Of a stretch of DNA of 34,628 nucleotides, positions 9,074 to 15,196 are shown piece by piece. Source of the stretch: a virus (taxonomy: Duplodnaviria > Heunggongvirae > Uroviricota > Caudoviricetes); the IMG/VR virus record IMGVR_UViG_2558860472_000005, positions 1-34,628 of that record. One strand, 5' to 3'. The notes beneath the pieces were generated by a model. That model was not told where the DNA came from, made no database searches, and worked only from the letters and a program-made list of their open reading frames with translations. The position numbers and the translations under genes are program-made. Every line of letters starts with the position of its first letter. Within the stretch, counting starts at the first letter, position 1.

Positions 9074-9871
9074 ATGAATAATCTGATGGTCATTGATGGT
9101 ATTGAAGTTCGTCGTGATGCTTATGGGCGTTACAGCCTGAACGATCTGCACAGGGCTGCCGGTTCTCAGGATAAGCATAAGCCTGCATTTTGGCTCCGCA
9201 ATGAGCAAACCGAACGTTTAATAAGCGAGTTGCAGATTTGCAACTCGGTCAATATAGAGCCAGTTAACGTTAGTCGTGGCGGAAATAACCAGGGGACGTA
9301 TGTCTGCAAAGAACTGGTGTATGCCTATGCAATGTGGATCAGCCCGTCATTCCATCTGAAGGTGATCCGTACTTTCGATATGGTAACCAGCGCACCGGAA
9401 AAATTATCCGGGCAGGCTGCTGACAAGATGCAGGCTGGTGTAATTCTGCTGGACTTTATGCGTCGGGAGTTAAACCTGTCTAACTCATCTGTGCTTGGTG
9501 CCTGTCAGAAACTCCAGGAGGCTGTTGGCTTACCGAATCTGGCACCGCGCTATGCCATTGATGCTCCTGCTGACGCGCCTGATGGCTCAAGTCGCCCCAC
9601 GCTGTCGCTGAGTGCACTGCTGAAACAGTATGGTATCCGCCTTACGGCTAATCAGGCATATCACCAGATGGTGAAGCTGGGGATCGTCGAGCAGCGCGAA
9701 CGATACAGCCGTACCTCGATTAACAACATCAAAAAATTCTGGTCGCTGACAGCGAAAGGCTGCATGTTCGGCAAGAACATCACCAGTCCCGCAAATCCGC
9801 GCGAGACGCAGCCGCATTTCTTCGAATCCCGATTCCCTGAGCTGTTAAAGCTGCTCGATACCGTTCATTGA
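9074..9871 (+). CDS. KilA-N domain protein (265 aa)
   Basis: The N-terminal 100 aa (IDGIEVRRDAYGRYSLNDLHRAAG ... GTYVCKELVYAYAMWISPSFHLKVIRTFD) match the KilA-N DNA-binding domain. The C-terminal half is unassigned. Confidence 0.65.
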   Translation: MNNLMVIDGIEVRRDAYGRYSLNDLHRAAGSQDKHKPAFWLRNEQTERLISELQICNSVNIEPVNVSRGGNNQGTYVCKELVYAYAMWISPSFHLKVIRTFDMVTSAPEKLSGQAADKMQAGVILLDFMRRELNLSNSSVLGACQKLQEAVGLPNLAPRYAIDAPADAPDGSSRPTLSLSALLKQYGIRLTANQAYHQMVKLGIVEQRERYSRTSINNIKKFWSLTAKGCMFGKNITSPANPRETQPHFFESRFPELLKLLDTVH

Positions 9872-9872
9872 G

Positions 9873-10868
9873 GTGACTGTGAGAGCACTACTGACCCCTG
9901 AAATTGCCCCGCGTATGGGGATCGTATTGTTCAGACCAGGTTCAGAGCTGATGCCCCTGTTTATGCAGGGGCGTGTCCTGCTGGAGCCTGAGCCGGAACG
10001 TTATTCATCTTTCGCCAGTGGTGCCGTTCCGGCGGCATCACAACCGCTGGCGGATGATCCTGCCGTTCGGGCCGTGTTCCGCAATGAGGCAGTGATCCGT
10101 CGTGCTGGTGGCGTGGAATGTCTTGAAAGCTGGTTACTTCGTGAAAAAAGCTGTCAGTGGCCTCATTCCGACTGGCATAGCGAGAACATGACAACAATGC
10201 GACACGCGCCGGGCGCAATCCGTCTGTGCTGGCACTGTGATAATCAGCTGCGCGATCAGTTCACGGAACGGCTGGAATCAATGGCAACGGATAACTGTGC
10301 CCGCTGGGTGTTGTCTGTTGTGCGTCGGGATCTCGGTTTTGATGATAGTCACGTTGTGACAATGCCGGAACTGTGCTGGTGGCTGATTCGTAATGATCTG
10401 GCGGATGCCTTACCGGAAAGTGCAGCCCGTAAGGCACTGAGATTACCGAAGCCTGTTGTGCCGTCTGTTACCCGGGAAAGTGACCTTGTGCCTTCGGTTC
10501 CTGCCACCAGCATCATCCAGGATAAAGCGAAAAAGGTGCTGGCGCTGAAAGTGGATCCGGAGTCGCCGGAGTCTTTTATGTTACGCCCTAAACGTCGCCG
10601 CTGGGTTAACGAAAAGTACACGCGCTGGGTTAAGACGCAGCCGTGTGCATGTTGTGGAAAGCCTGCTGATGATCCCCACCACCTGATAGGTCACGGTCAG
10701 GGTGGAATGGGTACAAAAGCGCATGACCTCTTTGTGTTGCCTTTGTGCAGAAAGCATCACGACGAGCTGCATGCGGATACTGTGGCATTTGAAGATAAAT
10801 ATGGCTCTCAACTGGAGCTGATATTTCGTTTTATCGATCGTGCGCTGGCAACTGGCGTGCTGGCCTGA
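9873..10868 (+). CDS. DUF968-like phage protein with a C-terminal Cys/His HNH-like motif
   Basis: The C-terminus [43 protein letters not shown] matches the conserved metal-binding module of DUF968 proteins in the nin region of lambdoid prophages (from memory). The start is uncertain: GTG at 9873 or 9879. Confidence 0.5.
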
Positions 10869-10885
10869 TTTTGTGGAGAAAGTTG

Positions 10886-11257
10886 ATGCGTGATATTCAA
10901 ATGGTTCTTGAACGTTGGGGTGCATGGGTGGCAAATAATCACGAGGATGTCACTTGGTCGTCTATTGCTGCAGGATTTAAAGGACTAATCCCTTCAAAAG
11001 TAAAATCCCGCCCGCAATGTTGTGACGATGACGCGATGATCATTTGTGGGTGTATGGCTCGCCTGAAAAAGAACAACAGCGATTTGCACGATTTATTAGT
11101 GGATTACTATGTAGGAGGTATGACATTTATGGCGCTTGCCCGTAAACATGGGCGTTCTGATTGCTGGGTTGGGCGTTTATTGCAAAAAGCGGAAGGAGTA
11201 GTTGATGGTATGTTGATAATGCTAGATATTGAATTGGAAATGGAACGTAAAATTTAG
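10886..11257 (+). CDS. Late-gene antiterminator Q (QuuD-type, PF06530-like)
   Basis: [14 protein letters not shown]...[32 protein letters not shown] closely matches my memory of the DLP12 QuuD antiterminator. GGAG lies upstream of the ATG at 10886. Confidence 0.7.
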
Positions 11258-11486
11258 TTATGTTATGAATAAATAAATGCTAATGATTTTTGTAAGATAG
11301 CTCATTTTATGTCCATAGGTGATGTATGCATTAATATGATTAATTTGTCTCCTTATAAAAATAAGATTATGTAAATAATAACAAAGGGTGACATTATTAA
11401 GTGTTGCTTTTTCTTAGTAAGTTGTTATCCTACTTAAGGTTGAATGATATTGTATCGAATAAAGTTGCTTATATAGAATTATTTTT

Positions 11487-12014
11487 ATGTTATGGCTTAT
11501 TGAGTTAGTTAATAGGATGATTGAATCAATGCTTTCAAATGTAATTTTAAGTGGAGCTATGTCCACGTTATTGGCTGCATTTCTAATTTTTGTGTTTAAG
11601 GAGTATATAAAAAGGCCACCTAATTTTTCAGGGGTGTTTGAGATCGAGTGTAAAACGCTAAAATCATCATATAATTCATATGTAAACCTAACTACATTCT
11701 ATACATTAGTGTTGATTTGTGATAATAACACTATAGAAGGACATATTGAAAAAATAAAAGATATCGAAAATGATGGGTATGAAAGAAAATATATTGGCGT
11801 GCATCGCAATATTGGCGATGTCAATGGTGTAATTAAAAGAAATTACTTAAGACCTAACCATGCTTCGTTGAATATAAAAATGCATGGTGATAAGAGGGAT
11901 TATACTATTATGCTATATTTTAAGAAGGTGAATACGAAAAATATGAAAGGAACTTTTTTATCTACTGCTGCAGATTCTTCTGGAGATGTTAAGTGGCAGC
12001 GAAAAAATTTTTAA
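11487..12014 (+). CDS. Hypothetical membrane-anchored protein (175 aa), first gene of a very AT-rich moron
   Basis: N-terminal TM helix (VILSGAMSTLLAAFLIFVF) followed by a soluble domain with no recognised motif. It overlaps the downstream GT51-like gene by 22 nt. GC is far below the backbone. Confidence 0.45.
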   Translation: MLWLIELVNRMIESMLSNVILSGAMSTLLAAFLIFVFKEYIKRPPNFSGVFEIECKTLKSSYNSYVNLTTFYTLVLICDNNTIEGHIEKIKDIENDGYERKYIGVHRNIGDVNGVIKRNYLRPNHASLNIKMHGDKRDYTIMLYFKKVNTKNMKGTFLSTAADSSGDVKWQRKNF

Positions 12015-12637
12015 TTTATTTACTGTCGTTGCCATATTTAATAATGGCTTCGATTATCATAAAGCTTAAAGTTAAAAGTATAATTGATGATTATGAGAAA
12101 TGTACTACTTATATTTACTGTAACTCGAAGAAATATAATAACATTTCTCCTGTTATGATTGATATATTAAGGTTAGCAGAGGATCATCGACAATTATTGC
12201 ATAGAGGGATTGACCCCATTGCAATCATTAGAACTTTTTATCTGAGGATATTTAAAAATATACACCAAGGAGCGAGCACTATAGAACAGCAGTTTGTGAG
12301 AACTATAACTAAAAGATACGAAAAAACAATACGTAGAAAGATAAGAGAGCAGATATTGGCTATATTGATTAGAAATGTATCAACTCCAGATGATATATGT
12401 AAGTGTTATCTTTCTTGTTGTTACTATGGCTATGGAACTTATGGGATAGATAATCTTTTAAAAAAGAAACAAAATATCAGTGATTTTGATATTGTTGCAA
12501 TGATTAAATATCCATTCAGGGGAGAAGTTGTTTCAGTTACAGAGGAACGATTTAAACATAGGTCGCTCTATCTTTCCACTTTATATAAATTAAATGCACA
12601 AAGGGATATGATTTTTTTGCGAAAATATAGTGGGTGA
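11993..12637 (+). CDS. GT51-family peptidoglycan glycosyltransferase homolog (MtgA/PBP transglycosylase-domain-like), membrane-anchored, 214 aa
   Basis: N-terminal TM helix, then the GT51 signature motifs in order. Motif I and II: AEDHRQLLHRGIDPIAIIRTFYLRIFKNIHQGASTIEQQFV, compared with EDxxFxxHxGxD ... GGSTITQQLVKN. Motif III: RKIREQILAILIRNVSTPDDICKCYLSCCYYGYGTYGIDN, compared with RKxxExxxAxxxExxxSKxxILExYLNxxYFGxGxYG. Distal motifs DIVAMIKYP and RSLYLSTLYK follow. Both catalytic Glu positions are present. GTG start with GGAG 7 nt upstream. Confidence 0.6.
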   Translation: MAAKKFLIYLLSLPYLIMASIIIKLKVKSIIDDYEKCTTYIYCNSKKYNNISPVMIDILRLAEDHRQLLHRGIDPIAIIRTFYLRIFKNIHQGASTIEQQFVRTITKRYEKTIRRKIREQILAILIRNVSTPDDICKCYLSCCYYGYGTYGIDNLLKKKQNISDFDIVAMIKYPFRGEVVSVTEERFKHRSLYLSTLYKLNAQRDMIFLRKYSG

Positions 12638-12659
12638 TTATGTTAAGTGTATTTTATTA

Positions 12660-12700
12660 TGTGTCAAAAAGTTTAGTCATCTCTGCTTAATGTATAATCG
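12660..12700 (+). promoter_or_regulatory. Candidate late promoter (pR-prime-like)
   Basis: TGTATAAT at 12692-12699 (TATAAT 12694-12699 with an adjacent TG). It lies about 170 nt upstream of a strong intrinsic terminator, comparable to the lambda pR-prime/6S/tR-prime layout. Confidence 0.3.
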
Positions 12701-12834
12701 TGAATGTTTTTATTCAGATTTTATGCATGTCAAGTTGATGAGTGCCGTCGACATAAGATATGGGGATAATGAATAGTTTACAATCGTAAATAATAGAATA
12801 TCCTGTTAAAAGTGGTTACTTCTCCACGCAGCTT

Positions 12835-12866
12835 AAACCCGCCGTCGAGCGGGTTTTGTCGTTTCT
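12835..12866 (+). terminator. Intrinsic terminator (tR-prime-like) upstream of the lysis cassette
   Basis: Stem AAACCCGC with loop CGTCGA and partner GCGGGTTT, followed by TGTCGTTTCT. Confidence 0.6.
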
Positions 12867-14332: not shown

Positions 14333-15196
14333 ATGGAAAGAGGTGTGGTATTTAGTGCATGCGAATTACTTAAAACCGAGGATGGAAAAGGCATCCGTAC
14401 AGGTAAATGGATTAGTCAATTAGAAATAAACTATCTATGTCTTTATTGGGATAAACTAGTTTCACCCACTAATAATATTATACATACAGCATTAAATAAC
14501 GAGGATGAATTAGAAAAATGTGGATTGCTAACCAGACCGGTATATAGACATCATGGTTGTTTTGATGGCCAATATATGGCGGATTTTTATGCTGAAACTC
14601 ATGCCAAAACAATAGATATACTTAGGCATGCGGATTCTTCTGTCGATTGGCGCATGCATTTTTTAAGTGACCAAATAAACTTGGTGCCTGAATTATCTAG
14701 AACCTCAGAAGTGATACGTTTTGAGCTAGCAAATTTATTACCCGTTCCCACAGAAGATGTGCACCTACATGATATTCTTGATTTCAAGGAAAGAAGAAAA
14801 CCTGAATTAATCGCTTTACATGAATATCTTGATGAGCTTTACTTGGAAATAAAACGTTCTGGTGATATCAATCTTCAGAAAGCAAAAGCTCTTTCTAATC
14901 TTAAACAAGCAATAAAGGATATCGAACGCTTAAATTGTGAAGTGTGGAAAAGTCCAATAAAATTTAGCATCTCTACTTCTTTTGAGTTCGATTTTTCACA
15001 AATATTTAGTCTGGCGGGAACTGTTTTATCTATGTCAGTAGATTATCCTTATAATGTTATTGGAGGGGTAAGTAGTTTGGCTTGTTTTTTGGGAGGATGC
15101 ATAAAAATAAAGCCGCAATTTCAACAAGTGTTATCATTAGGTAATGATAAATTAGTTTACATAAGCAAAGGAAAATCGGAGGGTATTATTTCCTGA
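14333..15196 (+). CDS. Hypothetical 287-aa protein, an AT-rich moron between the lysis cassette and the packaging genes
   Basis: Clean ORF with AGGAG 7 nt upstream. GC is well below the backbone. No recognised domain. It occupies the classic post-Rz moron slot (bor/lom position in lambda). Confidence 0.5.
   Translation: MERGVVFSACELLKTEDGKGIRTGKWISQLEINYLCLYWDKLVSPTNNIIHTALNNEDELEKCGLLTRPVYRHHGCFDGQYMADFYAETHAKTIDILRHADSSVDWRMHFLSDQINLVPELSRTSEVIRFELANLLPVPTEDVHLHDILDFKERRKPELIALHEYLDELYLEIKRSGDINLQKAKALSNLKQAIKDIERLNCEVWKSPIKFSISTSFEFDFSQIFSLAGTVLSMSVDYPYNVIGGVSSLACFLGGCIKIKPQFQQVLSLGNDKLVYISKGKSEGIIS

Follow-up and report, generated by a model that had tools for sequence, protein, structure and literature searches.

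We analyzed a stretch of 34,628 nucleotides (hereafter the window; IMG/VR record IMGVR_UViG_2558860472_000005) that represents a lambda-like prophage of Escherichia coli, and which hosts a cassette of two overlapping genes between the antiterminator gene Q and the late promoter. The first gene (11487..12014, + strand) encodes a membrane protein of 175 aa, here called the partner, and the second gene (11993..12637, + strand) encodes a protein of 214 aa that resembles glycosyltransferases (GTs) of family GT51. There is, in our estimate, an even chance that this cassette is a conflict or defense module acting on the cell envelope, a function predicted from sequence and modeled structure, and its most likely form would be an abortive-infection or toxin–antitoxin-like system. 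We favor a conflict module because the two genes are obligately paired, translationally coupled, and sometimes fused, the catalytic residues are intact, the distribution is that of mobile elements and small islets, and the prophage slot in question is also used by candidate defense genes.

GT51 enzymes are extracytoplasmic polymerases of the cell wall and targets of antibiotics such as moenomycin. The GT protein of the window has a hydrophobic helix at its N-terminus and, after it, a complete GT51 domain. Its gene starts with GTG, and GGAG (11982-11985) lies 7 nt 5′ of this start. An earlier note on this DNA had described both open reading frames (ORFs) as co-oriented and overlapping by 22 nt; they lie as described, and in E. 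coli prophages of identical sequence PGAP annotated the same two coding sequences, the first as "hypothetical protein" and the second as "transglycosylase domain-containing protein". The note had also read the second protein as a motif-complete GT51 homolog with both catalytic glutamates, and had called for a profile search and for structure predictions of the two proteins; the profile search and the predicted structure of the GT protein bore out this reading. The protein matches Pfam PF00912 with 83.4 bits against a cutoff of 27 (E = 1.6e-23), with the match spanning only profile positions 17-126 of 178, and a phmmer search against PDB sequences aligned it with PBP1a (E = 3.9e-15) without large gaps across motifs 1-4. 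The C-terminal third is divergent, yet it is present in the structural model and keeps the arginine of motif 5. This AlphaFold2 model (pLDDT 91, pTM 0.87) adopts the lysozyme-like bilobal α-helical fold of GT51, and Foldseek matched it with a probability of 1.0 to GT51 structures only (3nb6, 2oqo, 3vmt, 3hzs, 3dwk, and 5hlb). These comprise the GT domain of Aquifex PBP1a, MGT and PBP2 of Staphylococcus aureus, and PBP1b of E. coli, with TM-scores of up to 0.69 for the Aquifex PBP1a GT domain and S. aureus MGT.

Relatives were collected by scanning one genome per species with the motif G[AG]STI[ED]QQ, which revealed at least 482 species-level loci encoding a family-type GT relative, and 80 loci were kept for classification. 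The partner gene lies directly upstream of the GT gene in 40 of these 80 loci (type 1), partner and GT are fused in three, and a gene for a nucleotidyltransferase (NTase)-like protein lies downstream of the GT gene in 22 (type 2). The other 15 loci have the partner elsewhere in the locus, encode long PBP-like proteins, or are cut or unresolved. All five GT51 motifs, i.e., E63-D64…H70-G72-D74, G93-x-S95-T96-I97-x-Q99-Q100, R115-K116-x-x-E119, Y139…G146, and R190, do not vary among 37 aligned family members at 30-40% identity, and this applies in particular to E63, D64, G93, S95, T96, Q99, Q100, R115, K116, E119, and R190. E63 and E119 are the two catalytic glutamates; motif 3 contributes the basic residues R115 and K116, and motif 5 contributes R190. 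Six residues (E63, D64, R115, K116, E119, and R190) are retained in 43 of 43 type-1 proteins, in 23 of 23 type-2 proteins, and in six of seven fusions, the remaining one carrying E119D. The search pattern covered motif 2 only, and conservation of the catalytic residues is thus independent of it. Such conservation of the residues for catalysis and for pyrophosphate binding suggests that selection maintains catalysis on a pyrophosphate-linked substrate in each of the three arrangements.

The similarity to MtgA and to the GT domain of class A PBPs comprises the fold, the five motifs, both glutamates, and the pyrophosphate-binding residues (RK…E and R). However, the NCBIfam equivalog model for MtgA (TIGR02070) yielded 44.9 bits against a cutoff of 182.65, and the scores of the PBP1a, PBP1b, and PBP1c models were likewise far under their cutoffs, which rules out an MtgA or PBP ortholog. 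Of the earlier assignment to the MtgA/class A PBP type, membership in the GT51 family therefore stands, whereas orthology does not. Judged by its motifs, the protein belongs to a distinct clade, which is marked by an acidic motif 2 (STI(E/D)QQ instead of the STITQQ of MtgA and class A PBPs). The family further differs from these enzymes in the divergent C-terminal third, in being encoded in mobile pairs or fusions with a barrel or NTase-like protein, and in having relatives without an export signal or transmembrane (TM) helix, whose GT51-like domain is probably cytoplasmic. Scans of NCBIfam, PHROGs, and PADLOC returned nothing informative for either protein of the window beyond generic GT51.

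The partner gave no match in any sequence library scanned (Pfam, PADLOC, PHROGs, and NCBIfam). Its AlphaFold2 model (pLDDT 92) has an amphipathic helix and a single TM helix (residues ~19-41) in addition to a β-barrel of eight strands with up-and-down topology. The best natural soluble structural match is Cap15, an effector of the cyclic oligonucleotide-based antiphage signaling system (CBASS), and we therefore refer to the partner as Cap15-like. Cap15 and OptE, the latter from the Panoptes system, share with the partner the overall architecture and a C-terminal soluble eight-stranded β-barrel. S-2TMβ proteins join a two-pass TM element to a nucleotide-binding barrel (PMC12657218). A cyclic dinucleotide activates Cap15 and represses OptE, and S-2TMβ proteins in their growth-inhibiting state disrupt the membrane (PMC12657218, the Panoptes paper). 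The barrel of the partner carries invariant Arg and Glu residues. The enzymes encoded alongside also differ: CD-NTase/SMODS or mCpol nucleotide synthases in the known systems, and a GT51-like glycosyltransferase here. At type-1 loci, the neighbor of the partner is always a GT51-like gene and never a nucleotide synthase. Some UniRef names suggest that the partner is an S-2TMβ protein, but this membership was not reproducible by sequence.

Coupling of the two genes is evident at the junction (11982..12014, + strand), as read directly from the sequence. In the window, the GTG start at 11993 lies within the partner codons for K-W-Q, which results in the overlap of 22 nt. Of 49 distinct junctions, 44 have the GT gene in the −1 frame with respect to the partner, and in approximately 30 its start codon precedes the partner stop by exactly 22 nt, inside the conserved C-terminal K-W-Q codons of the partner (aA ATG GCa). 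Most of the remaining junctions are 4-nt overlaps of the form ATGA or TTGA. The recurrence of this arrangement marks the junction as an ancient translational coupling. The overlap of the window (11993-12014) also holds A-AAA-AAT followed by TTTTTAA, which is slippery-like in the partner frame and at which a −1 shift would join the two ORFs. We rejected a programmed −1 frameshift, since the heptamer is not kept at other junctions and is probably a by-product of AT-richness.

Genuine fusions do occur. At least eight natural partner-GT fusions were identified (L049, L084, L086, P0296, P0341, P0342, P0346, and P0357), all with the order TM helix, barrel, linker helix, and GT domain on a single chain, for example at L049:3348-4559, L084:268-1470, and L086:4213-5403. 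As Rosetta-stone evidence, these fusions argue that the two proteins physically work together.

The side of the membrane on which the proteins act is central to their interpretation. For the partner, the flanks of the TM helix in 50 homologs contain approximately zero Lys/Arg on the N side and approximately three directly on the C side. The same charge pattern is found in proteins with an outside N-terminus and an inside C-terminus, such as the Pf3 coat protein. Because of this resemblance, we predict that the barrel is located in the cytoplasm, which is also where the barrels of Cap15 and OptE sit. For the GT domain, the fusions are informative. The segment that corresponds to the N-terminal GT helix is not hydrophobic in fusions (maximum KD19 of 0.6-1.4, compared to ~2 in unfused proteins), and since the fusions thus lack a second TM helix, barrel and GT domain must share one side of the membrane. 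Type-2 GT51-like proteins are free of hydrophobic and signal segments (KD19 ≤ 1.1), and their NTase-like partners likewise lack any hydrophobic segment. In unfused type-1 GT proteins, positive charges flank the helix evenly or with a slight excess on the C side, and enterobacterial members have 4-9 cysteines without an even-number bias. A signal-peptidase site at the conserved Pro of the GT helix was considered and discarded, as the same LP…FSR motif is internal in fusions. Taken together, the fusions without a second TM helix, the soluble sister clade, and the charges and cysteines make a cytoplasm-facing GT domain more likely at the level of the family. The protein of the window itself, with an N-terminal helix of 20 residues that is hydrophobic (KD19 2.07) and has balanced flanking charges, may share this orientation. 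We know of no characterized GT51 enzyme that faces the cytoplasm; all are extracytoplasmic.

The pair is a self-contained mobile cassette that occurs mostly outside phages. With clustering at 50% identity, an exhaustive profile search assigned 891 clusters to the partner family at E ≤ 1e-3, 413 of them at E ≤ 1e-10. Homologs have ~190-245 aa in the case of the GT and mostly 164-182 aa in the case of the partner. The pair was found in Enterobacterales (Leclercia, Yersinia, and Pectobacterium), in other Proteobacteria (Pseudomonas, Allochromatium, Marinomonas, and betaproteobacteria), and in further phyla, including Acidobacteriota, Binatia, and Fibrobacteres; of 13 matching viral contigs, six contain it. 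Among 43 loci, no third conserved gene was detected, and the flanks are unrelated between lineages.

The genomic contexts are diverse. The Pectobacterium pair is part of the cargo of a P4-like satellite and adjoins ParE/Phd and AbiEi/AbiEii genes. In Yersinia, the pair is located immediately beyond the integrase gene of a P2/186-like prophage, and two viral contigs (L100 and L101) have it in such a position as well. The Marinomonas pair is located beside RHH and ParE/Phd genes, and another copy is carried by a conjugative IncF NDM-4 plasmid. In Allochromatium vinosum (CP001896.1, L009:6001-7913), the pair and a DUF4160 gene split a V-type ATPase operon between the genes for subunits A and B, and some other loci are small islets between housekeeping genes. 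We compared the 278 ORFs within 4 kb of the pair at 37 loci to PADLOC profiles, evaluating raw counts. Strong matches were obtained at approximately 10 of the 37 loci, and comprise type I, II, and IIG restriction-modification systems, the candidates PDC-S05, PDC-S23, and PDC-S32, and CARF, NERD+UvrD, AbiEi, AriA/PtuA-like, and GajB-like proteins. A link between the cassette and defense islands is thus suggestive, but not universal.

Type 2 is represented by 23 loci from Bacteroidota, some Pseudomonas, Scandinavium, and one viral contig (L055:9959-11207, L064:10001-11252, L089:9932-11191, L102:4486-5740, and 19 other loci). Its GT51-like protein is soluble, comprises 188-214 aa, and has all catalytic residues intact. 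The product of the gene that follows and overlaps the GT gene is likewise soluble, measures ~228 aa, and contains an invariant GS…G…SD(L/M)D motif, as is typical of Pol-β-type nucleotidyltransferases. The match to Pfam Polbeta is weak (E = 0.058) and a comparison to the PDB gave no match, and we tentatively regard the protein as a nucleotidyltransferase on the basis of the GS…DxD motif.

Two sets of longer proteins were encountered along with the family. Three proteins of 455-669 aa (L091:8618-10498, L095:8501-10510, and L085:9233-10600) end in a family-type GT51 domain (~150 bits), their N-terminal regions of 250-480 residues have no Pfam match, and they may represent a third architecture. 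Jumbo-phage proteins of 744-749 aa, encoded on six IMG/VR contigs of 244-325 kb (L103-L108, at ~9725-12049 in each), reached 51-58 bits with the GT51 profile of the family. They were not accepted as family members, as they are different and only weakly related GT51-containing proteins, which may be PBP-like or virion-associated.

In the window, the cassette occupies a slot with well-defined edges. The left edge is formed by Q (10871..11257, + strand; PF06530, E = 2.9e-51), which belongs to the prophage backbone, and homology to a sibling prophage with a 95%-identical Q stops at the Q stop codon. To the right of the insert, sibling homology starts again at 12776-12799. Here, the window and two sibling E. 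coli prophages of the same Q family have an 82-bp block in common (12776-12857), which is found upstream of a holin gene in more than 2100 E. coli genomes. Promoter and terminator scans placed a late promoter/terminator unit in this block (12777..12856, + strand), with a −35 element (TTTACA, 12777-12782), a −10 element (TATCCT, 12799-12804), and a GC-rich hairpin (12835-12856) followed by a T-run, and we read the block as the pR′/qut/tR′ unit. It is followed by holin, endolysin, and Rz genes of the λ family. The endolysin corresponds to λ lysozyme (PDB 1AM7, E = 2.8e-96), which is a lytic transglycosylase, in agreement with the earlier note.

Because sibling homology breaks at the Q stop codon and returns at 12776-12799, the pair can be regarded as cargo between Q and pR′. 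The moron position and the low GC content proposed in the earlier note were thereby confirmed: GC is 0.27-0.31 over ~11150-12800 and 0.5-0.58 on either side, and the insert (11258-12776) is compositionally foreign, has conserved backbone at both ends, and is replaced by other, unrelated cargo in both siblings (L015 and L109). The slot of the L109 sibling, a prophage of E. coli strain 04-00955, contains two minus-strand genes (L109:812-2423) that match the PADLOC candidates PDC-M53A (E = 1.3e-31) and PDC-M53B (E = 1.7e-54), which identifies the Q-to-pR′ interval as a slot for defense-type cargo. PDC-M53 resembles the cassette in its position and in consisting of two genes; however, the proteins are unrelated, the genes lie on the opposite strand, and they have no envelope-enzyme signature. 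The insert further includes an AT-rich 5′ leader (11258..11486, + strand; GC 0.27-0.30) and an AT-rich 3′ tail (12638..12776, + strand; GC ~0.30). A promoter of the cassette is presumed to lie in the leader; a promoter scan of its + strand detected no σ70 site scoring ≥ 9/12, and an Rfam search of the insert region, including the leader, gave no RNA family match. As it lies upstream of pR′, the pair should be outside the Q-dependent late transcript.

Further genes in and around the slot were noted. A 48-aa ORF (12630-12776, + strand) overlaps the end of the GT gene and extends through the AT-rich tail; it is unsupported and has no PGAP annotation. In the prophage of E. coli strain 190, a second cargo slot between the pR′/tR′ unit and the holin gene (L015:4537-5589, + strand), which is where stx genes sit in Stx phages, contains an orphan type II DNA methyltransferase (PADLOC MTase_II, E = 3.3e-152). 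Directly 3′ of Rz, the window carries an AT-rich cargo gene (14333-15196, + strand; GC 0.32-0.36) for a DUF6236 protein of 287 aa (PF19749, E = 1.8e-31; phrog_23128, function unknown). This protein has no PADLOC match, and its gene, which closes the lysis cassette, is possibly a further moron or candidate defense gene.

How might such a module work? We infer that the two proteins form an approximately 1:1 complex at the inner membrane, in which the partner would be a single-pass protein with a cytoplasmic barrel and the GT51-like enzyme would be coupled to it. In the resting state, one protein would hold back the other, and phage infection, or loss of the element, would unleash killing directed at the envelope. 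This killing could be executed by the barrel protein, which would oligomerize and permeabilize the membrane in a Cap15-like manner. In a version with a lethal enzyme, the GT51-like protein would polymerize or sequester precursors linked to undecaprenyl pyrophosphate (putatively lipid II) on the cytoplasmic face and thereby starve wall synthesis, and it would be gated by the barrel protein in type 1 and by the NTase-like protein in type 2. In a Panoptes-like version, comparable to OptS/OptE, the constitutive product of the enzyme would keep the Cap15-like barrel from oligomerizing, and interference of a phage with the precursor pathway would release it. Which protein senses and which one kills would differ between these two versions, and in either of them we have much less confidence than in a conflict module as such. 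Rather unlikely, although worth stating, is that the cassette is the founding example of a new and widespread class of conflict systems, in which a GT51 enzyme at the cytoplasmic face serves as suicide effector or, as a Panoptes-like suppressor, constitutively makes a lipid-linked product. Disturbance of the lipid II pathway by amurin-type lysis proteins or by host shut-off would then trigger abortive infection, and the NTase-like partner would link the enzyme to nucleotide-based regulation.

That E. coli lyses when its lipid II supply is cut is well established. Provided that lipid II is consumed or trapped by the GT51-like enzyme, colicin M and the phage lysis proteins φX174 E, Qβ A2, and LysM of phage M would be functional analogs, and only that. 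They act by lipid II hydrolysis or by inhibition of MraY, MurA, or MurJ, whereas polymerization or sequestration is proposed for the cassette, and folds and chemistry are unrelated.

Several observations weigh against a Cap15-like defense module. An eight-stranded barrel is a generic fold, and streptavidin and designed barrels match the partner as well as Cap15 does. Unlike Cap15 and OptE with their two TM helices, most partner homologs have a single one, preceded by an N-terminal tail of 5-12 residues, which is not the two-pass element of S-2TMβ proteins. A similarity of sequence profiles to Cap15 or OptE was not detectable either: the partner family profile matched nothing among PDB sequences at E ≤ 10, Cap15 included, and a Pfam scan of 50 partner homologs gave no S-2TMβ match at E ≤ 10 and no other consistent match. 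PADLOC-DB v2.0.0 contains no match for either protein at E ≤ 1. The GT helix of the window, with its KK N-terminal tail, resembles an ordinary signal anchor, which makes a periplasmic location an option for unfused members. Many loci are flanked by housekeeping genes, so that the link to defense islands is partial. The full insert is rare (three of 5426 complete E. coli genomes), and the partner was found in none of 50,697 deposited phage genomes. Finally, our literature search, with incomplete journal coverage, found no description of the pair. The GT domain label is already known from RefSeq ("transglycosylase domain-containing protein"), and it is for the Cap15-like pairing, the fusions, the 22-nt coupling, the NTase-paired sister arrangement, and the probable cytoplasmic orientation that we found no published description.

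These observations have to be considered together with other explanations for the cassette. The pair could comprise an accessory periplasmic MtgA-like synthase and a membrane regulator or activator, which would remodel or reinforce the wall of the lysogen and might lead to β-lactam tolerance, changed access to phage receptors, or superinfection exclusion at the envelope. The intact GT51 motifs and fold agree with this, as do the hydrophobic helix (KD19 2.07) and basic N-terminal tail of the window protein, which are as in canonical GT51 enzymes, and one Foldseek alignment that extends over the TM region of S. aureus MGT. We nevertheless consider such a synthase improbable, given that all scores are far under every PBP/MtgA equivalog cutoff, that the fusions set the GT domain on the side of the predicted cytoplasmic barrel without a second TM helix, and that the sister clade is soluble, lacks a signal sequence, and has a soluble NTase-like partner. 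Moreover, 4-9 cysteines without an even bias are atypical of exported proteins, and sporadic mobile islets near toxin–antitoxin or defense genes are not what is expected of a housekeeping-type synthase. Wall remodeling by a biosynthetic polymerase, as suggested in the earlier note, is therefore probably wrong in view of the fusions and the soluble sister clade, and the same features, by pointing to a cytoplasm-facing enzyme, argue against action in the periplasm as the PBP decoy that the note had suggested. A pure addiction module has a similarly small probability. Without any anti-phage role, it would stabilize its mobile elements through a toxin, either a lipid II-depleting GT51-like enzyme or a membrane-permeabilizing barrel, that is neutralized by the other protein. 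Such a module would fit two compact, overlapping, and tightly coupled genes that are carried by a plasmid, prophages, and a satellite and adjoin toxin–antitoxin pairs (ParE/Phd) or the DUF4160 gene, and the type-2 pair of GT and NTase-like protein recalls the logic of MNT-/AbiEii-type toxin–antitoxin systems. Yet both proteins are highly conserved and form stable fusions, and a single-chain toxin–antitoxin system is unusual, as a labile antitoxin is classically needed. Many toxin–antitoxin modules also act against phages, so that addiction overlaps with a defense function and does not exclude it.

Very improbable, in our view, is an accessory function in lysis or the lytic cycle, in which the pair would be expressed with Q at induction and tune the supply of wall precursors or the timing of lysis. 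The genes are co-oriented with the early-right operon, directly 3′ of Q and just 5′ of the holin, endolysin, and Rz genes, a terminator scan found no terminator between Q and the pair, and the endolysin, as a lytic transglycosylase, acts on the same glycan strands. However, the pair lies upstream of pR′ and thus outside the Q-dependent late transcript, in sibling prophages the same slot is taken by minus-strand cargo unrelated to the pair, the majority of family loci lie outside phages, other viral occurrences are away from the lysis region, and deposited phage genomes do not encode the partner. Since the pair is a mobile cassette found mostly outside phages, roles tied to the phage's own lysis timing are unlikely as its core function. 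Of the "two-component defence or lysis-timing module" that the earlier note had also offered, defense remains the best-fitting option, whereas lysis timing does not fit.

If upheld, the conflict-module interpretation would describe a catalytically intact GT51 clade that is found only in mobile cassettes and fusions, with a Cap15-like partner and a probable cytoplasmic orientation, which would be new. Within this group of lambdoid prophages, the Q-to-pR′ interval acts as a hotspot for cargo and is worth mining for further systems. At a size of 1.2 kb and originating from E. coli, the cassette is amenable to direct testing. Should it indeed function in defense or abortive infection, the lipid II/undecaprenyl-phosphate cycle would join the processes that immunity modules monitor or sabotage, and the Cap15/OptE effector family would reach beyond nucleotide signaling.

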